Shown piece after piece: positions 15,255-64,000 of a DNA stretch of 64,000 bases. This stretch comes from Bacteroidales bacterium (lineage in GTDB: Bacteria > Bacteroidota > Bacteroidia > Bacteroidales > P3), in assembly GCA_031260565.1 (NCBI GenBank), contig JAISLH010000015.1:452-64451 (forward strand), written 5' to 3'. The position numbers and the translations under genes were made by a program. Numbering within the stretch: the first letter of the stretch is position 1; each line of letters opens with the position of its first letter. The notes below the pieces were generated by a model. It ran no database searches. It saw only the letters and a list, made by a program, of their open reading frames with translations, and was not told the DNA's origin.

Positions 15255-15485
15255 AATATTATAGTTTCCAAGTTAAACACTATAACTTTCGAGTTAAACA
15301 CTATAACTTTCGAGTTAAACACTATAACTTTCAAGCCAAACACTATAACTTTCAAGTTAAACACTGTAACTTTCAAGTTAAACACTATAACTTTCAAGCC
15401 AAACACTATAACTTTCAAGTTAAACACTATAACTTTCAAGTTAAACACTATAACTTTCAAGTTAAACACTATAACTTTCAAGCCA
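15255..15485. repeat. Tandem array, 21-bp unit AACACTATAACTTTCAAGTTA, 10 full units plus 1 degenerate leading unit
   Basis: Units start at 15276 and recur every 21 nt to 15485. Variants are gagtta, aagcca and ctgtaac. The leading unit 15255-15275 matches 16/21. Confidence 0.95.
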
Positions 15486-39279: not shown

Positions 39280-39670
39280 CCGAACGCCAAATTAGCAAAA
39301 TCCTCTCCCAAAACGCTATTCTACTTTCTCCAAACGCCACTTTAACTTACTCAAACGCTGTTTTAATTTAGCGAAACAGTGTTTTATTTTAGCGAAACGC
39401 TGCTTTATTTTCGTTAGATGTACATCTAAAATAAATAAGATGTACATCAAAATAAAATAAGATGTACATCAAAATAAAATAAGACGTACATCAAAATAAA
39501 ATAAGACGTACATCAAAATAAAATAAGATGTACATCTAATGAAAATAAGATGTACATCAAATAAATTTTAAGTGGCGTTTCAACAAAATAAAACACTGTT
39601 TCGCTAAATTAAAACAGCGATTGAGTAAGTTAAAGTGGCGTTTGGTTATGTTAAAGTGGTGTTTGTGGAA
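39280..39670. repeat. Composite palindromic element B1: 61-bp inverted arms plus 7 x 22-bp phased GA[T/C]GTACATC array
   Basis: Arms 39330-39390 and 39585-39645 are reverse complements at 60/61. Palindrome copies start at 39417, 39439, 39461, 39483, 39505, 39527 and 39549. Extra degenerate boxes lie outside the arms. Confidence 0.95.
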
Positions 39671-43849: not shown

Positions 43850-44191
43850 TTACTTAATTTCTTTTATCATCTGTTCTATTTCTCTTTTCAAAACAGGCAA
43901 ATGTCGCACTACAACACCCCAAATAATCCCATCGTCAATTTTATCATAGCCGTGAATGACCCTATTTCTCATTCCTATAATTTGCTTCTTCGCTGAAATG
44001 TTTATGTTGGGAGCATTTTTTTCCAATCTGTTCATTGCTTCTCCTATGATTTCGAACTCTCTTTCAACGGCTCGCCGCAACATTTGATTAGACATATAAA
44101 CATTGAAATCAAGATTTTCTCCCAAGTAGTTTTCTATTGAGAGTATGGATTGTTGAATGTCGTACAGATACTTTTTAATCTCTATTTCCAT
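43850..44191 (-). CDS. hepT: HepT (DUF86) toxin of a type VII HepT/MNT toxin-antitoxin pair
   Basis: It has the Rx4HxY motif RNRVIHGY, is 113 aa, and overlaps the upstream nucleotidyltransferase gene by 17 nt. Confidence 0.8.
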   Translation of the reverse strand: MEIEIKKYLYDIQQSILSIENYLGENLDFNVYMSNQMLRRAVEREFEIIGEAMNRLEKNAPNINISAKKQIIGMRNRVIHGYDKIDDGIIWGVVVRHLPVLKREIEQMIKEIK

Positions 44192-44486
44192 ACAACAAAA
44201 CTTTTGACTGGTTAATAGACTGAATGAAATAAGGGTTTTTTAAAGAGTTTTCAGTTACCAAATCAACAGGTCGCTCAAAAATCTCTTCTAATTGTTCTGC
44301 CGTTTCAAAATAATTATCAGCATAATCGGCATAATCCATAGCCTTAAATGACACCAACAAATCCACATCACTTTGAGCATTGAACTTATTAGTCAATGAT
44401 GACCCAAAGACATACATAGCATCAACAAAATGGCTATCACAAACCTGCTTTATGCGTTCTAAATTTGAAGTAATAAGACTATTCAT
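44175..44486 (-). CDS. mntA: MNT-type minimal nucleotidyltransferase antitoxin
   Basis: It has YVFGSSLTNKFNAQSDVDLLV (GSx10DxD). I chose the start at Met35 because a -7 box (44513-44520) lies inside the longer track ORF. Confidence 0.75.
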   Translation of the reverse strand: MNSLITSNLERIKQVCDSHFVDAMYVFGSSLTNKFNAQSDVDLLVSFKAMDYADYADNYFETAEQLEEIFERPVDLVTENSLKNPYFIQSINQSKVLLYGNRD

Positions 44487-44512
44487 AGCAAAATCCCTTT
44501 TAATTACACCTG

Positions 44513-44520
44513 CAAAAGTA
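44513..44520 (-). promoter_or_regulatory. -7 promoter box (TACTTTTG)
   Basis: TAnnTTTG lies 27 nt upstream of the ATG at 44486. Confidence 0.45.
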
Positions 44521-44802
44521 GGAAAATTATTTTTAATAACTGCGGTTTTTGCACTTTCATTCAAAAAATATTTTTCAAGGATTGCCACATTCTTTCAAAT
44601 ATGTTATGTGTCTTTCTGTATTCCTGCTTTTTTATCCAATAATCTTCACGCAATTTTCTACTTTCTTTTATTACTTTAGGTTGAGGACAACTTAAGGAGT
44701 CTTTTTGCCGTATTTAATGATAGCAAAGGTACATCTTTTTTTTTGAAACAACAAAATAAATCATCATTTTGCCCTCCTCTACCCACATTCTAATTTAGCA
44801 TT

Positions 44803-57538: not shown

Positions 57539-57846
57539 AACGAAGCAGTGTTTTAATTCACTCAAGCAGTGTTTTAAATCACTCAAACAGCGTTTTAAAT
57601 TACGGAAGCAGTGTTTAAACTTCTTGAAACAGCGTTTGAGATTCATAAGATGTACATCTTTTTTTCATAAGATGTACATCTTATTTTCGTTTGATGTACA
57701 TCTTATTTTATTTTGATGTACATCTTATTAAATTTAGATGTACATCTTATTAAGTTTTGATATATACCAAACTAAAATAAAACACTGCTTCCGTAAATTT
57801 AAACACTGTTTCAGTAACTTAAAACACTGCTTCGTTAAGTTAAAAC
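57539..57846. repeat. Composite palindromic element B2: imperfect inverted arms of AAGCAGTGTTTTAA-type boxes plus 5 x 22-bp phased GATGTACATC array
   Basis: Palindrome copies start at 57649, 57671, 57693, 57715 and 57737. The first 18 nt of the left arm (aacgaagcagtgttttaa) are the exact reverse complement of 57819-57836. The left arm carries one extra box. Confidence 0.95.
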
Positions 57847-58013
57847 AAAGTAAGAGCGAAATGTAATCAAGTTTGGGAGCGACAAAACAAAATAAGAGCA
57901 AATTAAAACCTTACTTTATTTTAGCCAAAGGAAGAATGAAGGGAATAATATGGGCTGTTATCCCCGTAAAACCGCATATTGCGTTGTTGGAATATGGTTA
58001 CGCAAAATTTTAT

Positions 58014-58021
58014 TACCTTTG
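58014..58021 (+). promoter_or_regulatory. -7 promoter box (TACCTTTG)
   Basis: TAnnTTTG lies 23 nt upstream of the ATG at 58044. Confidence 0.5.
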
Positions 58022-58043
58022 CAGCTGAAAAAACTATAAGAAA

Positions 58044-58391
58044 ATGATAATGATTCCCTCATCGGTATGGTTAATATTAGCAGCGGCAACAGGAATACTT
58101 TTAGGTAAGTGGCTGTCTGTGCGGTATCTGAAACGCAGAATGGCAGGAGATGATACGGATTTAGTCATCCTGTATAAGCAAAACAGGAAACGACTCTATG
58201 TTTGCTCTTATGCGTTTCTCTCTTTTGTGGCTTTGGGCTTGGTTTTTGAGCTTACGCTAAATTATGACATCTTTTCGTTTGGCTTAGGTAACGGGTTAAG
58301 GGTGTGTCGCATAATTCCTATACTCTTTTTTCCCTTTGCAATATTTTATGGTAATAATTACAAAACTTTAGAAAGGAAAATAATAAAATGA
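58044..58391 (+). CDS. Small polytopic membrane protein (115 aa), paralog of the next ORF
   Basis: It has 3-4 hydrophobic segments and shares the N-terminal pattern ...GKWLSVRYLKRR with the downstream ORF. The junction is an ATGA overlap. Confidence 0.55.
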   Translation: MIMIPSSVWLILAAATGILLGKWLSVRYLKRRMAGDDTDLVILYKQNRKRLYVCSYAFLSFVALGLVFELTLNYDIFSFGLGNGLRVCRIIPILFFPFAIFYGNNYKTLERKIIK

Positions 58392-58738
58392 CGTGGTATT
58401 TAGTGGCAATAATCGTAATAGGGGCAGTAGCTATGCTTGTTAGCAAGTGGCTGTCTAATCATTATATGAACAGGATATTGAAGCAGGAGAACGCTGATTT
58501 GCAGAAAGAATACGATATAAACAAGAAGAGGAGCAATGTTATGATGAGAGTAATGTTTGCAGGCTTTGCAATCTATGTCTTAATTGTGATGCTAACAGCA
58601 ACAATACCATATACAGATTACTTGATATATGGAATGCTGGTGATGGTGTGTGGTTTAACCCTGTCAAGCGGATATTATGGCTATAATATGCAAAGATTAG
58701 TGAAGACAATATTAAATAATAAAAATACAAAACAATGA
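58388..58738 (+). CDS. Small polytopic membrane protein (116 aa), paralog of the previous ORF
   Basis: It has ...SKWLSNHYMNRI and the same architecture. An ATGA overlap joins it to the CoA-transferase gene. Confidence 0.55.
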   Translation: MTWYLVAIIVIGAVAMLVSKWLSNHYMNRILKQENADLQKEYDINKKRSNVMMRVMFAGFAIYVLIVMLTATIPYTDYLIYGMLVMVCGLTLSSGYYGYNMQRLVKTILNNKNTKQ

Positions 58739-59373
58739 GTAAGCATATTAAAATCAACGAAGCAGTTGATATGATTAAAGACGGAATGACCGTTATGATT
58801 GGTGGTTTTCTTGCTGTGGGAAGTGCCAACGACATTATCGCAAAACTTGCCGACAAAGGCGTTAAAGACCTGACTCTAATCTGCAATGATGCGTCTTATG
58901 TGGATAGAGGTATCGGGCTTTTGATAGCAAGAGGGTGCGTTAAGAAATGTATTGCATCCTATATTGGCTCTAACCCTGTGGCAGGTGAAAAGATGAACAG
59001 CGGAGAATTGGATATGGAGCTTGTACCTCAGGGAACTCTTGCTGAGAGAGTGCGTTGTGGTGGCGTAGGTGTTGGAGGTTTTTTGACTAAGACGGGTATT
59101 GGTACGCTGGTTGAGGAAGGTAAGCAAAAGATTGTAGTTGATGATGTTGAGTATCTTTTGGAGAAACCTCTCAGGGCAGATGTTGCTTTGATTGGAGCGA
59201 GCCTTTGCGACAAGCACGGTAACCTTATCTATAAAGGAACGAGTCAAAACTTCAACCCACTTATGGCAATGGCTGCCGATGTTGTCATTGCACAGGTGCG
59301 AGAAGAGGTTGATACTATGGAAGCGGAAACAATCCATACGCCATATCTCTTTGTAGATTATATTGTCAAATAA
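58735..59373 (+). CDS. atoD: 3-oxoacid / acetate (butyrate-acetoacetate) CoA-transferase subunit A
   Basis: It is colinear with E. coli AtoD: DGMTVMIGGF, DLTLICND, IASYIGSNP, LVPQGTLAERVRCGG.G.GGFLT.TG.GT.VEEGKQ and NFNPLMA.AAD. Confidence 0.8.
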   Translation: MSKHIKINEAVDMIKDGMTVMIGGFLAVGSANDIIAKLADKGVKDLTLICNDASYVDRGIGLLIARGCVKKCIASYIGSNPVAGEKMNSGELDMELVPQGTLAERVRCGGVGVGGFLTKTGIGTLVEEGKQKIVVDDVEYLLEKPLRADVALIGASLCDKHGNLIYKGTSQNFNPLMAMAADVVIAQVREEVDTMEAETIHTPYLFVDYIVK

Positions 59374-59374
59374 C

Positions 59375-59407
59375 CAATGACTGCACAGGGCTTATATATT
59401 AAGTTAA
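59375..59407. repeat. 33-bp direct repeat, left copy, flanking the R-M cassette
   Basis: caatgactgcacagggcttatatattaagttaa is identical to 60989-61021. It begins 2 nt after the atoD stop codon. Confidence 0.97.
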
Positions 59408-59448
59408 TATACACGAATAATAAGTTAGAGTATCATATTTTATAATCA

Positions 59449-60231
59449 ATGGAGCTATCAACGATATACAATGAGAATTGCTTGGAAACAATGAAGCGTA
59501 TGCCTGATTGCTTTCTTGATTTTGTTATTACATCTCCCCCTTACGATGATATTCGCAATTATAACGGCTTTACTTTTGAGTTTGAAGATATTGCGAGGCA
59601 GCTGTTCAGGGTTATGAAAGAGGGGGCTGTTATGATATGGGTTGTTGCAGATGCTACAATAAATGGTTGCGAAAGCGGGACATCATTCAAGCAGGCGTTG
59701 AAGTTTATTGAGATAGGCTTTCGGTTGCACGACACTATGATTTATTATAAAAACAACCCTATGCCACAAACAGGCAATCGCTATCATCAGCACTTTGAAT
59801 ATATGTTTTGTCTTTCCAAAGGCTCGCCTAAAACATTTAATCCAATAACTGAAAAGACCAAATACAACGGTTTGGCTAATATGAAAAACAGAGGTAAGAG
59901 AGGGGAGTTGCTTTATGAAAAGATAGAGCGAACAAGTGAAAAGAAGGTAGGTAATGTCTTTTGTTATTCCGTTGGTGGGGGCATTTCAACAAAGGACAAG
60001 ATAGCTTACAATCACCCTGCAATATTTCCCGAAAATTTAGTTAAAGACCAGATTAAGAGTTGGACTAATGAGGCGGACTTGGTTTATGACCCCTTTATGG
60101 GAAGTGGCACAACGGCAAAGGTAGCTCAGCTTATGAACAGACGTTGGATAGGCTCTGAAATATCAACGCAATATGTTGAAATTGCAGAGCAAAGAATAGC
60201 TCAGTATGTATTAGATGACTTATTTGTTTAG
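59449..60231 (+). CDS. Beta-class amino DNA methyltransferase (SPPY type, probably N4-cytosine or N6-adenine)
   Basis: It has motif IV ITSPPYDDIRNY at the N-terminus and motif I DPFMGSGTTAKVA at the C-terminus, at 260 aa. Confidence 0.85.
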   Translation: MELSTIYNENCLETMKRMPDCFLDFVITSPPYDDIRNYNGFTFEFEDIARQLFRVMKEGAVMIWVVADATINGCESGTSFKQALKFIEIGFRLHDTMIYYKNNPMPQTGNRYHQHFEYMFCLSKGSPKTFNPITEKTKYNGLANMKNRGKRGELLYEKIERTSEKKVGNVFCYSVGGGISTKDKIAYNHPAIFPENLVKDQIKSWTNEADLVYDPFMGSGTTAKVAQLMNRRWIGSEISTQYVEIAEQRIAQYVLDDLFV

Positions 60232-60234
60232 ATT

Positions 60235-60987
60235 ATGGATTTAGTTCAAAGAGGCTCTCAAACGGCAAAAGATGGTTTTCGTAACGAAGATGATATTGTT
60301 ATAAAGTTTAATAATTGGCAAAAAGACAACGAAGCTAAACTTTGGTTAGAGTATATGGGCTATAAGCTGGAGGATATTGAATATGTTAAGGTGATAAAGG
60401 TTGCAAAAGCTAAAACAGATGTTCAAGTTCAAATAACGATTAAATTAAAGAAAATAATAGATGCACAAAACATTCAGGTAAAACTTGTGAGCAACAACTC
60501 TGGCTTTAATCAAATAGATAAACGTTGGGTTGATAATTATGTTGAATTATGGAATATACCAAATGATGTTTCATCGTTATTAAAGCAATACACTGGGGAA
60601 ACAAAGCCAACGTTTAACACAAAAGACAAGAGGAGAGCTTTCGCAAATGAGTTTAACGACCAAGAGCAAATGAAGCTAATCAAATGGATAAAGAACAATC
60701 AATCACTAATAGTATCTGATATATTAAAAGGCAGAGGGCAGTTAGCTGCGGAATGGATGCTGGTCGTTCAAAAAGCTAACTCTACAACCAAATGGATACT
60801 GAACTCAATGAACTATTGCCTAAACTTCTTTGGCAATGGTGATGTTGTCATAACAGGGAGAGGGAGCATTAGAATAGGACAAATTACCATGCAACGCAAA
60901 GGTGGTGATGGAGGAAGAGATACGGCAAATATGTTACAATTCAAAATCAATCCTGCGTTGTTGTTTAAAAATGAAATAACAAAATAA
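60235..60987 (+). CDS. Type II restriction endonuclease, HinP1I/MspI-like by motif
   Basis: It starts 3 nt after the methyltransferase stop and is 250 aa. A PD-(D/E)xK variant has E18, D62 and Q81-V-K83 (KTDVQVQI...NIQVKLVSN). Confidence 0.6.
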   Translation: MDLVQRGSQTAKDGFRNEDDIVIKFNNWQKDNEAKLWLEYMGYKLEDIEYVKVIKVAKAKTDVQVQITIKLKKIIDAQNIQVKLVSNNSGFNQIDKRWVDNYVELWNIPNDVSSLLKQYTGETKPTFNTKDKRRAFANEFNDQEQMKLIKWIKNNQSLIVSDILKGRGQLAAEWMLVVQKANSTTKWILNSMNYCLNFFGNGDVVITGRGSIRIGQITMQRKGGDGGRDTANMLQFKINPALLFKNEITK

Positions 60988-60988
60988 T

Positions 60989-61021
60989 CAATGACTGCAC
61001 AGGGCTTATATATTAAGTTAA
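60989..61021. repeat. 33-bp direct repeat, right copy
   Basis: It is identical to 59375-59407 and begins 2 nt after the endonuclease stop codon. Confidence 0.97.
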
Positions 61022-61074
61022 ATGTAGTTACAAATTAGATAATAGTAATAACAAATAAAATAAAAGAATAAATT

Positions 61075-61467
61075 ATGGCAGTAAAATCATTAATCAGAAT
61101 GAGAATGAGCTCACACGATGCTCATTATGGAGGAAATCTTGTTGATGGAGCAAGAATGTTAAACCTTTTCGGTGATGTTGCAACCGAGCTTTTAATTATC
61201 AATGACGGCGATGAAGGGCTGTTTTGTGCGTATGACAATGTTGAGTTCCTTGCACCAGTGTTTGCAGGAGACTACATTGAAGCAACAGGAGAGATAACAC
61301 AGGTCGGCAATTCGTCTCGTAAGATGACCTTTGAGGCACGTAAAGTTATAGCTCCAAGAACAGATATTTCGGATTCGGCAGCAGATGTTTTGGCTGAGCC
61401 GATAGTTGTTTGCAGGGCAAGCGGAACGTGTGTTGTACCAAAGAAAAGCCAACGTAAAACCAATTAA
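61075..61467 (+). CDS. kal: 3-aminobutyryl-CoA ammonia-lyase (hotdog fold)
   Basis: It is 130 aa. [33 protein letters not shown]...[18 protein letters not shown] matches the Kal pattern, and it lies immediately upstream of kce. Confidence 0.7.
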
Positions 61468-61470
61468 GCT

Positions 61471-62298
61471 ATGGAAAAGTTAATAATAACAGCAGCAATA
61501 TGCGGTGCAGAGGTTTTGAAGGAACACAATCCTGCTGTACCATACACCATTGAAGAATGTGTCCGTGAAGCAAAGTCGGCTTATGAGGCAGGAGCAAGCA
61601 TTATCCACCTTCATGTTCGTTGGGATGACGGCACTCCTACACAGGACAAAGAACGTTTTCGTGTCATTATGGAAGCAATTCGCAAGGAGTGTCCCGATGT
61701 TATCATACAGCCTTCGACAGGTGGAGCAGTGGGAATGACAGATGATGAGCGTCTGCAGCCAACGGAACTAATACCTGAGATGGCTACTTTGGATTGTGGA
61801 ACTTGTAACTTTGGCGGTGATGATGTCTTTACCAATACAGAGAACACTATCAAGTACTTTGGTGACAGAATGATTGAAAGAGGTATAAAGCCAGAGCTTG
61901 AAGTTTTTGATAAGTCTATGATAGAAATGGCTCTTCGCCTTCACAAAAAAGGACATATCGTAAAGCCTATGCACTTTGACTTTGTGATGGGTGTCAATGG
62001 CGGTATTGGTGGAGATATTCGCGACTTTGTCTTCTTACGTGGCTCTATACCTGCTGATGCTACTTACACTGTGGCAGGTGTTGGTCGTTACGAATTTCCT
62101 CTTGCGGCGTTGGCAATAATTGACGGCGGCAATGTGAGAGTGGGCTTTGAGGACAATGTTTATCTTGCTAAGGGTGTGCTTGCCAAATCCAATGGAGAGC
62201 TGGTGGCAAAGGTTGTCCGTATGGCTCGTGAGCTTGGTCGTGAGGTAGCCAACCCAACGGAAGCACGTCAGATATTAGGGTTAAAACCACTGAAATAA
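61471..62298 (+). CDS. kce: 3-keto-5-aminohexanoate cleavage enzyme (BKACE/DUF849)
   Basis: It has LIITAAICGAE...PYT.EE....A..AYEAGASIIHLHVR and TIM-barrel BKACE motifs, at 275 aa. Confidence 0.85.
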   Translation: MEKLIITAAICGAEVLKEHNPAVPYTIEECVREAKSAYEAGASIIHLHVRWDDGTPTQDKERFRVIMEAIRKECPDVIIQPSTGGAVGMTDDERLQPTELIPEMATLDCGTCNFGGDDVFTNTENTIKYFGDRMIERGIKPELEVFDKSMIEMALRLHKKGHIVKPMHFDFVMGVNGGIGGDIRDFVFLRGSIPADATYTVAGVGRYEFPLAALAIIDGGNVRVGFEDNVYLAKGVLAKSNGELVAKVVRMARELGREVANPTEARQILGLKPLK

Positions 62299-62382: not shown

Positions 62383-64000
62383 ATGATGGATACCAAAAAA
62401 AGTGAAAAGATTAAAAAATGGTTAAAAGCCATGTCTTTTGAATTGCCTCAAAACAGTTTTCAATTAAATGTTGATTTTCAAAATGAAAGATTCATTTATC
62501 CTGTCGGCTTGAATACAAATGGAGATTTTGTAACGGCTATTGTTGATGACAGAAAAGAAAACTTTGTTGTCTTTGAGTGTGTGCATCGTCTTCTGAAAAA
62601 GGGCTATAAACCCGAACATATTGAACTGGAAAGACCTGTAAAAGTTGGACATGGAGCAAGCGGCGGCAGGTCAGATATTATTGTAAAAGACAATGACGGC
62701 AATATATTACTGATAATTGAATGCAAAACCTACGGAACGGAATTTAACAATGCATGGAAAGATACTTTGGAAGACGGCGGACAACTCTTTACTTATGTAA
62801 ATGGACTGGATAATTCAACGCAATTTGTTGCCCTCTATGCCTCTGAACTTGCCGATGAAAAAATAAAATATGATTGCAATCTTATTGCTCTTCGGGATAA
62901 TGAAGAATATTTGCAATCATTTGGTAAAAAGAAAGTACCATGTTTCAAAGAAGCAAAAAATACAAAACAAATCTATGCGGCTTGGGCGGCAACCTATCAA
63001 AAGGACTATTCCACACAGGGACTTTTTGAGGAAGACATTGCCGCCTATACAATAGGAAAAACCAAATATTCGGCAAAGGACTTAAAAGAAGTTGATAACG
63101 ATGATATTCAAAAGAAATACCACCAATTCGCTACCATTTTGAGAAAATACAATGTATCGGGACACGAAAACGCTTTTGATAAACTTGTTAATCTCTTTTT
63201 GGCAAAGATTGTTGATGAGAATATCAACAAAGACGAACTCGCTTTTTATTGGAAAGGTGCGGCTTATGACGATGTTTTCAGTTTGACGGACAGATTGCAA
63301 AAGCATTACAAAATCGGAATGGAAAAGTTTTTGAACGAAGAGGTTACCTATATAGAAAACGCCGATATTGACCATGCGTTTCGCCTGCACAAAAAAGATG
63401 CTACCAAAAAGGTGATTTTGGATTATTTAAGGCAACTCAAATTTTTTACTAACAACGACTTTGCCTTTATTGATGTGCATAACGAAAAACTTTTTTATCA
63501 AAATGCCGAAGTGCTGCTCGAAATCGTTAAGATGATTCAGGATATAAAACTGCAAACCAACACGCAAAACCAATTCTTGGGTGATTTGTTTGAGGGCTTT
63601 TTAGACAAGGGCGTAAAACAAAGTGAAGGGCAGTTCTTTACTCCGATGCCCATTGTAAAATTTCTAATTTCTTCTTTGCCTTTGGCTGAAATGGTGAAAA
63701 ACGGTGAGGCATTGCAAACGATTGATTATGCTTGCGGAGCGGGACACTTCTTAAACGAATACGCCAATCAAATTTTGCCGCTCATTGAAAAAGATAAAAA
63801 AGCCGATTTCTATAAGGCAATTACGGGCATTGAAAAAGAATACCGCCTTTCAAAAGTGGCAAAAGTTTCCGCTTTTATGTATGGGCAGGACGACATTAAA
63901 ATTATTTACGGCGATGCACTTGCAAAGAATGCAGACATCAAAGACGGCACTTATTCTATTCTTGTGGCAAATCCGCCCTATTCGGTGAAAGGTTTTTTGG
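62383..64000 (+). CDS. Type IIG-like restriction-modification fusion protein (N-terminal PD-ExK nuclease plus gamma-class N6-adenine methyltransferase), 5' part only
   Basis: I translated it by hand. It is open from ATG 62383 to the window end (about 539 codons) and is not in the ORF track because it has no stop. It contains GRSDIIVKDNDGNILLIIECKT (D...ExK), EGQFFTP, DYACGAGHFL (motif I) and LVANPPYS (motif IV, 63973-63984). Confidence 0.8.
   Translation, partial: MMDTKKSEKIKKWLKAMSFELPQNSFQLNVDFQNERFIYPVGLNTNGDFVTAIVDDRKENFVVFECVHRLLKKGYKPEHIELERPVKVGHGASGGRSDIIVKDNDGNILLIIECKTYGTEFNNAWKDTLEDGGQLFTYVNGLDNSTQFVALYASELADEKIKYDCNLIALRDNEEYLQSFGKKKVPCFKEAKNTKQIYAAWAATYQKDYSTQGLFEEDIAAYTIGKTKYSAKDLKEVDNDDIQKKYHQFATILRKYNVSGHENAFDKLVNLFLAKIVDENINKDELAFYWKGAAYDDVFSLTDRLQKHYKIGMEKFLNEEVTYIENADIDHAFRLHKKDATKKVILDYLRQLKFFTNNDFAFIDVHNEKLFYQNAEVLLEIVKMIQDIKLQTNTQNQFLGDLFEGFLDKGVKQSEGQFFTPMPIVKFLISSLPLAEMVKNGEALQTIDYACGAGHFLNEYANQILPLIEKDKKADFYKAITGIEKEYRLSKVAKVSAFMYGQDDIKIIYGDALAKNADIKDGTYSILVANPPYSVKGFL

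Follow-up and report, generated by a model that had tools for sequence, protein, structure and literature searches.

A restriction-modification cassette between 33-bp direct repeats in the lysine operon of a Bacteroidales bacterium: a probable insertion with long target duplication

The cassette, its repeats, and its host operon

Analysis of a 64,000-nucleotide stretch of a Bacteroidales bacterium (assembly GCA_031260565.1, contig JAISLH010000015.1, positions 452 to 64,451, forward strand; hereafter the window) identified a compact type II restriction-modification (R-M) cassette lying between atoD and kal in a lysine-fermentation operon (Table 1). The cassette consists of a methyltransferase gene (M) followed by an endonuclease gene (R) and is enclosed by two copies of the 33-mer CAATGACTGCACAGGGCTTATATATTAAGTTAA, both on the + strand and without a single mismatch between them. 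A search of the window allowing up to 3 mismatches returned no third copy, and 100 dinucleotide shuffles gave none, the chance expectation of such a repeat being 0. The copies are 1614 bp apart from start to start, with 1581 bp between them that comprise, in order, a 41-bp leader, the methyltransferase gene, a 3-nt gap, the endonuclease gene, and a single T. Each copy begins 2 nt past a TAA stop codon, the left one after atoD (ending at 59373) and the right one after the endonuclease open reading frame (ORF; ending at 60987).

Beyond one C/T mismatch the repeat continues leftwards with AAATAA to give a 40-bp version spanning 59368-59407 and 60982-61021 (39/40 positions, 97.5% identity by blastn). 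In this version the repeat takes in the final Lys codon and the TAA stop of atoD and likewise those of the endonuclease gene. The overlap with coding sequence amounts to 6 nt and a long coding duplication was not seen. Two unrelated native C-termini stand to the left of the 40-bp repeat, with PYLFVDYIVK conserved among AtoD relatives and INPALLF, at the end of the endonuclease, conserved across the endonuclease family. Folding of 60980-61050 and 59366-59450 on both strands gave z values of +0.6 to +0.8, showing the 33-mer to be unstructured.

The host operon was recognized from Kal and Kce, both of which exceed the NCBIfam equivalog cut-offs for lysine-fermentation enzymes. A scan for Kal with one genome per GTDB species yielded 80 loci, in 62 of which atoD lies directly 5' of kal with a gap of 12-192 bp and kce is usually the next gene; the atoD-kal order was also present in L165, L166, and L170 (L numbers designate fetched loci and contigs). 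This adjacency in related genomes identifies the cassette as an insertion and the locus as the derived state. The cassette has the same orientation as orf115-orf116-atoD-kal-kce and the neighborhood is ordinary chromosome, including nqr genes, dnaG, cysS, pfk, tsaD, and cargo genes of the type IX secretion system (T9SS). No tRNA is present at the insertion site, the sole RNA gene in the window being a tRNA at 22.7 kb. Pfam scanning of the window ORFs of >=100 aa, i.e., the plausible gene-sized ones across the 64 kb (a few of them without any match), detected no recombinase, transposase, or resolvase domains, and no tyrosine recombinase was found in the window. Neither a transposase nor terminal inverted repeats were found, and the duplication of 33-40 bp compares with 2-14 bp for transposons and insertion sequences.

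Two Logan contigs from sequencing run SRR14710919 were exact substrings of the window (57717-59404 and 59378-60996) that end within the repeat, as a k=31 graph would, and confirm the junction k-mers atoD-repeat, repeat-leader, and endonuclease-repeat. At k=31 an integrated copy and a free circle are indistinguishable, and the two states cannot be separated where these contigs break. The locus could be read as an assembly artifact or a mixed population, in which the chromosome is atoD-33-mer-kal and the assembler would have threaded into it an M-R pair that shares the 33-mer but resides on its own 1.6-kb circle or in a different genome. The contig carrying the M-R pair (L002) stops at 60996, 8 nt into the right repeat and 22 nt short of the end predicted from the repeat alone, and this early end may reflect a sequence variant in the sample. 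Nevertheless, such an artifact was considered very improbable: the source contig is 66.6 kb long and the usual metagenome assemblers end at k well above 33, with junctions needing read support, a free 1.6-kb circle without a replication gene is unlikely to persist, and the integrated form is consistent with all four junction halves seen in the Logan contigs.

Table 1. Features of the cassette-bearing locus, with window coordinates.
Feature	Coordinates	Strand	Evidence or remark
atoD, CoA-transferase subunit A	58735..59373	+	Pfam CoA_trans, E 3e-62; NCBIfam TIGR02429, 208 bits vs cut-off 128
Left 33-bp direct repeat copy	59375..59407	+	Exact match; with 59368-59374 forms the 40-bp repeat, one mismatch
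Cassette leader, 41 bp	59408..59448	+	
DNA methyltransferase, 260 aa, beta class	59449..60231	+	Pfam N6_N4_Mtase, E 2e-42
R.HinP1I-family type II endonuclease, 250 aa	60235..60987	+	Pfam R-HINP1I, E 4e-80
Right 33-bp direct repeat copy	60989..61021	+	Exact match
dif-like central region and XerD-arm half-site	61007-61023		Right repeat copy plus next two bases (AT)
Native kal leader	61022..61074	+	kal-proximal part matches sequence upstream of kal in other loci
kal, 3-aminobutyryl-CoA ammonia-lyase	61075..61467	+	NCBIfam NF052388, 201 bits vs cut-off 160
kce, 3-keto-5-aminohexanoate cleavage enzyme	61471..62298	+	NF052387, 446 bits vs cut-off 382; last operon gene

The methyltransferase and the endonuclease

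The methyltransferase carries its SPPY motif ahead of DPFMGSGTT and its relatives in the PDB include CcrM, N4-cytosine methyltransferases, MboIIA, and PvuII. Identity to the methyltransferases of homologous cassettes was 74-80%. The endonuclease aligns over residues 1-244 to crystallized R.HinP1I (PDB 1ynm; E 3e-81, ~50% identity), and D62, Q81, and K83, which we take to be the catalytic residues of HinP1I, were invariant in a 25-sequence family alignment. A total of 5694 endonuclease homologues were found at E <=1e-10, the closest being ~70% identical. Both genes are full-length relative to their homologues and the R-M system therefore looks functional.

From the likeness to R.HinP1I and the depletion of GCGC in the window (9 observed vs 99 expected, nine- to eleven-fold under-represented) we infer GCGC as the recognition site of the endonuclease. 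As this tetranucleotide has no adenine, the product of the partner enzyme would probably be N4-methylcytosine. No GCGC site occurs between 57 and 63 kb of the window, and cleavage by the endonuclease at its own site was rejected on this basis as the cause of the break at insertion. Across the whole window, avoidance of 4-bp palindromes was extreme (observed/expected: GGCC 2/146, CTAG 8/106, GCGC 9/99, GATC 18/160, CGCG 11/65, and TCGA 21/120), suggesting long exposure to many restriction systems.

Transcription signals were sparse around the cassette. The Bacteroidetes -7 box (TAnnTTTG) was absent from the repeat, the cassette leader, and the kal leader, and the only nearby box lies at 58014, 30 nt ahead of orf115. 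Many homologous cassettes share a leader ending TTAAATTTGCAAC-ATG with a -7 box inside, to which the leader of the window cassette is dissimilar. The repeat was rejected as a promoter donor to the cassette, having no TAnnTTTG and sigma-70-like matches only at the level of shuffled sequence. No terminator-like site was found within or just past the cassette. The lack of a recognizable promoter of its own together with the co-orientation with the operon suggests that the cassette is probably read through from the operon promoter.

Much of what the original prediction had claimed from the sequence alone was borne out by these analyses. The perfect 33-bp repeat, its position 2 nt past both TAA stops, and the 1614-bp unit were confirmed by exact matching; the apparently intact type II R-M pair was supported by Pfam and PDB matches, catalytic motifs, and full length; and its placement as an insertion between atoD and kal agreed with the related loci. 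The statement that no recombinase is present held for the cassette and for the scanned window ORFs, and a repeat of 33-40 bp is indeed too long for the target-site duplication of a transposase. A longer duplication including coding sequence, which the original prediction had set against its reading, was present only as the extension to 40 bp with its 6 coding nucleotides.

Homologous cassettes in other loci

Eighty metagenome loci with endonuclease homologues were fetched with the family alignment and 19 of them had the same M-then-R order with both flanks present. Flanking direct repeats surrounded 5 of the 19 cassettes, all unrelated in sequence: exact repeats of 26 bp in L085 and 43 bp in L088, and repeats of 117 bp (87%) in L086, 169 bp (91%) in L109, and 355 bp (95%) in L095. 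The 26-mer of L085 holds the stop codons of both convergent neighbor genes, so each neighbor retains an intact end, as a target duplication predicts. As a control, exact repeats of >=25 bp at 1-3.5 kb spacing were present in 3 of the 80 kal-centered loci (850 kb), all three being gene paralogues or a CRISPR-like array, compared to 9 of the 80 endonuclease-centered loci (400 kb), where 6 of the 9 enclose the endonuclease gene. Junction microhomology was unconfirmed as a general feature, with AAATAA at the right junction in the window and none in L085 and L088.

A second architecture was identified in 7 of the 19 cassettes (L086, L087, L090, L091, L095, L109, and L112), which are bounded by inverted 12-nt cores: G|TTATAGTGCAT located 55-65 nt 5' of the methyltransferase gene and A[T/C]GCACTATAAC right after the endonuclease stop. 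A strong downstream hairpin was present in three of four folded sequences (L086 and both strands of L091; z -3.7 to -5.2) and a weaker one in L087 (z -1.5). The geometry is that of an integron cassette with its attC site, and the seven may be described as integron-like. In L091, the cassette adjoins a divergent tyrosine recombinase that scores 238 bits against a cut-off of 220 for NF040815 ("tyrosine recombinase/integron integrase") and below the cut-off for TIGR02249; a GmrSD gene follows the hairpin. Comparison with these homologues suggests that two modes of travel are open to one R-M pair, the integron-like cassette and a recombinase-free route, and R.HinP1I-type systems as integron-like cassettes in Bacteroidota may merit separate study. 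Judged by their ends, the clean analogues of the window cassette are L085 and L088 only.

The window cassette itself has no family inverted cores (G|TTATAGTGCAT ... ATGCACTATAAC) nearby within 2 mismatches, and the 33-mer has no similarity to the sequences 3' of the endonuclease gene in 18 homologous cassettes. A derivation of the 33-mer from the 3' sequence or the attC of the cassette itself was dismissed, since the 33-mer has neither this similarity nor a fold and no family core was found.

Two further loci pair an R.HinP1I homologue with a C5-type methyltransferase. In L110 (1-5317), direct repeats of ~1 kb flank a unit that also contains an IS91-family transposase and a tyrosine-recombinase fragment, and in L138 (113-3071) the pair is flanked by an 87-bp direct repeat.

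Origin of the 33-mer

Neither the JGI metagenome contigs nor the viral contigs gave a match to the 33-mer, nor did 170 fetched loci, the genome collection not being scanned for it, and a fuzzy search (<=8 mismatches) found nothing in 82 loci (L001-L082), of which 80 are kal-centered. No exact protein matches were returned for Kal, Kce, or the 260-aa methyltransferase. Against plasmids, the cassette gave weak matches only, in Spiroplasma and Bacillus.

The closest relatives (~85-90% identical flanking genes) have atoD-kal spacers of 12, 24-37, 50, and 243 bp, indicating that this spacer evolves fast, and those of near relatives other than L163 could not be aligned to the window spacer. The atoD DNA of L163, the nearest relative, is 85% identical to that of the window and its contig stops 71 nt past the stop codon. 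When these 71 nt were aligned from the stop codon, the score of a reconstructed empty-site model (33-mer plus right flank) was reached by 0.2% of shuffles compared to 2.7% for the occupied left junction, and the advantage of the empty-site model arises from the part beyond the repeat. L169 is from the same JGI sample (3300042624) and its kal DNA is 90% identical. By eye, its kal leader has GTT[A/G]AATG...TAGTTAC in common with the 3' end of the repeat and the right flank, whereas the best local alignment, a weak one (p 0.11), covers the TAGTTAC... part only. Next to kal, the right flank matches L164 (p 0.012), L169, and several other loci and is clearly native. The 33-mer itself can be interpreted with moderate confidence as target sequence.

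None of L163-L170, which were found via AtoD and Kal, was usable as an empty site, considering their 12-, 50-, and 243-bp spacers and the T9SS cargo gene 5' of kal in L169. This gene for a T9SS-sorted protein, together with the end of the atoD contig, suggests that a different insertion may occupy the atoD-kal spacer of the L163/L169 organism.

An alternative is that both 33-mers are foreign, either as a fragment of slightly more than one unit from a donor tandem R-M array or as degenerate ends of an integron cassette, and that the ancestral spacer was just the A-rich ~30 bp beside kal. In the closest GTDB relatives (L003 and L004) the spacer is A-rich, 24 bp long, and similar to the kal-proximal right flank alone, the integron-like ends of 7 of the 19 homologous cassettes (L091 having its adjacent tyrosine recombinase) provide a precedent, and the left junction G|TTAATATACAC is faintly like the start of an integron-like cassette. 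This origin was nevertheless regarded as improbable because the 33-mer is unlike any homologue downstream sequence or fetched locus, no hairpin occurs at the 33-mer, and no family core is near the cassette. In addition, the L163 tail aligns to the 33-mer region at an equal offset from the atoD stop, and the GTT[A/G]AATG..TAGTTAC of L169 5' of kal argues that native sequence extends into the repeat.

A dif-like half-site in the right repeat

The 3' half of the right repeat with the next two bases (TATATATTAAGTTAAAT) has 2 mismatches (15/17) to the central region and XerD arm of Escherichia coli dif and is the sole place in the window within 3 mismatches of that stretch. It has 1 mismatch (16/17) to the degenerate bacterial dif consensus used for the scan, a level reached five times in 1.34 Mb on both strands, and predicted Bacteroidetes dif sites are of such a type, e.g., TTGTCCTATAATTTATATTATGTTAAAT. 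This resemblance bears on a Campbell-type integration in which a circular M-R element carrying the 33-mer would have recombined at an identical chromosomal 33-mer. The exchange would have been carried out by RecA on the 33 bp of homology or by a trans-acting recombinase, either host XerC/D, as with IMEX elements, or some other tyrosine recombinase, and would have left repeats that are true attL and attR. The repeat-insert-repeat structure is exactly as such an integration yields, and the copies diverge within the would-be XerD arm, with AT towards the chromosome and TA towards the cassette. Integrase-less microvirus proviruses with dif-like repeats have also been proposed for Bacteroidales (PMC3091885).

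However, the other arm (TGCACAGGGCT) agrees by eye with the XerC arm at only 2/11 positions and is equally poor in both copies, which argues that the chromosomal target was no bona fide dif. Between 44 and 64 kb the cumulative GC skew rises and does not switch near 59-61 kb, the site is within an operon and 2 nt past a stop codon, and no dif-like match was found in the repeats of other family cassettes. A similar AT-rich string is present in an ordinary promoter-like region 5' of kal in L043. Finally, the 33-mer was nowhere else in the JGI metagenome contigs, viral contigs, and fetched loci, and a prior event would still be required to place the host 33-mer on the element. A Campbell-type origin was consequently judged unlikely, with Xer-type integration as a minor rival kept alive by the dif-like half-site.

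The original prediction had likened the repeats to attL and attR or to a homology-mediated cassette capture and had advised looking for the 33-mer beside other cassettes. The attL/attR reading gained no support, as the 33-mer was absent wherever it was searched, is unstructured, and is unlike the flanks of homologues, and the analogous cassettes have unrelated repeats of their own.

Probable insertion with long target duplication

The explanation we favor, with rather more confidence than doubt, is that the cassette arose by "R-M insertion with long target duplication", a class reportedly described by Nobusato et al. in Gene in 2000. Furuta, Abe and Kobayashi (2010, NAR; PMC2853133) define it by an insert that contains R and M and is <20 kb, a direct repeat >30 bp, and a repeat that is single in the insert-less genome. 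Repeats of 46-47 bp and of ~400 bp are among their published cases, in some of which the repeat reaches 2-15 bp into the 3' end of a gene, and the insertion mechanism is given as unknown, with double-strand breakage suggested (PMC2853133). The cycle proposed there runs from insertion through amplification via the repeats to release, with experimental support cited for amplification only (PMC2853133). In the window, homologues of both R and M are within the insert (Pfam N6_N4_Mtase and R-HINP1I), which comprises 1581 bp with two ORFs and no other mobile-element genes, and the direct repeat is identical at 33/33 positions or 39/40 when extended. The cassette is thus a clean further example of an already described class rather than a new kind of element. 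The original prediction did not name this class, which is the best fit among those published.

Under target duplication, a foreign fragment of ~1.58 kb would have entered the atoD-kal spacer of a Bacteroidales chromosome carrying the M gene and the GCGC-type R gene only, trimmed to 41 bp upstream and ~0 bp downstream. Insertion would have proceeded without a recombinase while duplicating the target over 33 bp, or possibly 40 bp, and with the 33-mer native to the spacer both copies would be target-derived. The duplicated bases may stem from breaks with a wide stagger that were then filled in, or from a broken fork at which ends were joined or the template was switched. Once in place, the cassette would probably be transcribed from the operon promoter near 58014 by read-through, and kal-kce would now need read-through across the cassette. 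Homologous recombination between the repeats could release the unit as a 1614-bp circle, leaving a restored site, or could amplify the unit, while loss of the cassette would be opposed by post-segregational killing.

Several observations weigh against this explanation. An empty site with a single 33-mer was not seen among the sequences on record, and, since spacers differ widely among the closest relatives, L163 and L169 lend support that is statistical and of weak to moderate strength. No conspecific sequence was present in the protein collection (best AtoD relative 87% and best Kal relative 98% identical), and exact AtoD and endonuclease proteins occurred in one sequencing run only, on contigs that break in the repeat. 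Among the homologues, L086, L095, and L109 have integron-like ends and their repeats may be array elements rather than target duplications. The right half of the repeat resembles a dif half-site, a hint of a site-specific route. Lastly, the comparison of GC content between cassette and neighbors suggested in the original prediction gave 36% for the cassette compared to 40% in the window and 43-45% in the lysine genes, a mild deviation that is not decisive.

R-M genes at other lysine operons and further features of the window

Genes of other R-M systems were also found in the spacers of this operon. L127 (1-4300; JGI Ga0310697_10023116), an unrelated Bacteroidales contig with an AtoD 59% identical to that of the window, has R-M genes between atoD and kal. 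They encode a 345-aa methyltransferase with C5-type motifs (by eye) and an R.HinP1I homologue 64% identical to that of the window, are on the opposite strand, and are followed by ~1.3 kb of non-coding DNA, with no flanking repeat above chance. L127 is a second, independent R-M insertion in the atoD-kal spacer. Between kal and kce, the GTDB metagenome-assembled genomes (MAGs) L048 (6400-7950) and L077 (6390-7970) have a different R-M pair consisting of a 215-aa putative endonuclease and a 298-aa SPPY methyltransferase. A 12-bp duplication (AAACAAGAATAT) flanks the pair in L048, and L077 has a split endonuclease gene and a truncated methyltransferase gene. The same spacer in L022 contains a 390-aa ORF with ATPase-like motifs (by eye).

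In the window, an ORF of at least 538 aa directly past kce (62386-64000, + strand) runs off the window end. Nuclease-like at its N-terminus (HSDR_N_2) and carrying an N6_Mtase domain, the visible part of which ends in NPPY, it is probably a type IIG/IIL-like fused R-M enzyme, in which case kal-kce is bracketed by two restriction systems.

The window copy, L127, L048/L077, the type IIG-like enzyme past kce, and the split within the cassette family can be combined in a broader reading. The short lysine-fermentation operon atoD-kal-kce of Bacteroidales would be a recurrent landing pad for promoter-less R-M cassettes expressed from the host operon, and one M plus R.HinP1I family would use two routes: an integron-like one with 12-nt inverted cores and a hairpin, versus a recombinase-free or Xer-assisted insertion duplicating 26-43 bp. 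This reading is offered tentatively and we consider it doubtful; the recurrence of R-M genes in the atoD-kal-kce spacers, the two modes of mobility, and the promoter-less embedding rest on few cases.

Tandem arrays of 21-22-bp units were present in the window at 57543-57847, 39311-39565, and 15269-15482. At 39416-39565 and 57648-57751 the repeating unit measures 22 bp and is based on a 10-bp palindrome, GATGTACATC. Units of 21 bp (AAGCAGTGTTTTAAATCACTC and its relatives) flank these stretches and are mirrored at 57773-57847, and the array at 15269-15482 is a separate one with 10 copies of 21 bp. The array at 57.5 kb is just upstream of the promoter of the cassette-bearing operon. A CRISPR-like array, with a repeat of 46-50 bp and a period of ~76 bp, was found upstream of the lysine genes in the GTDB MAG L042 (1-3400).

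Other genes in the window included a second N6_N4 DNA methyltransferase of 339 aa near its start (350-1369, + strand), any partner gene of which would be off-window, and a HepT/nucleotidyltransferase toxin-antitoxin pair (43850-44588, - strand).

Comparison with known systems

With R.HinP1I of the HinP1I system (PDB 1ynm/2fkc, GCGC) the window endonuclease aligns along its whole length, and it keeps D62, Q81, and K83. The partner of R.HinP1I is a C5-cytosine methyltransferase, whereas the window endonuclease is paired with a beta-class enzyme of SPPY (N4/N6) type. In L110, L127, and L138 the R.HinP1I-type endonuclease gene has a methyltransferase with C5-type motifs beside it.

Integron gene cassettes are likewise compact, promoter-poor, and co-oriented with upstream transcription, and homologues of the window M-R pair have 12-nt inverted cores and a hairpin, one of them with an integrase-like gene. 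In contrast, the window copy has no hairpin, inverted cores, or integrase and is flanked by a plain direct repeat; no attC site was found at its 3' end, where folding z values were +0.6 to +0.8 compared to -1.5 to -5.2 in the homologues.

IMEX and the Bacteroidales microvirus proviruses of Krupovic and Forterre (2011; PMC3091885) are similar to the window cassette in having no integrase, direct repeats, and partial resemblance to dif. They differ in that the window has only a half-site, inside an operon and with no GC-skew switch, and that the identity between its copies runs 18 bp beyond the dif-like part. Integration at a chromosomal dif at the GC-skew switch was not found at the window locus. 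The tandem amplification of BamHI in Bacillus (ref 84 in PMC2853133) has the same repeat-R-M-repeat layout that would permit amplification or excision, while the window was assembled with a single unit only.

The closest likeness is to R-M insertion with long target duplication, shared features being a short insert of R and M, no mobility gene, a unique direct repeat >30 bp, an intergenic site, and a repeat that touches the 3' end of a neighbor gene. The published Haemophilus influenzae cases have 46-bp repeats that overlap gene ends by 2 and 15 bp, and the 33-40 bp of the window are at the short end compared to the 46 to ~420 bp given there for the class. The insertion inside a co-oriented catabolic operon is unlike the published class. 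The phyla named in the passages considered here are Proteobacteria, Cyanobacteria, Actinobacteria, and Thermus (PMC2853133), compared to Bacteroidales for the window. The mechanism of R-M insertion with long, variable duplications is unexplained more than 20 years on and clean minimal cases are the raw material for its study. The cassette leaves current concepts unchanged, and for annotation the kal-kce genes of this host are now downstream of a 1.6-kb defense insert. With a perfect 33-bp repeat, a 41-bp leader, no sequence trailing the endonuclease gene, and no helper genes, the window example is minimal, and it extends the pattern to uncultured Bacteroidales and to an R-M unit wired into a metabolic operon.

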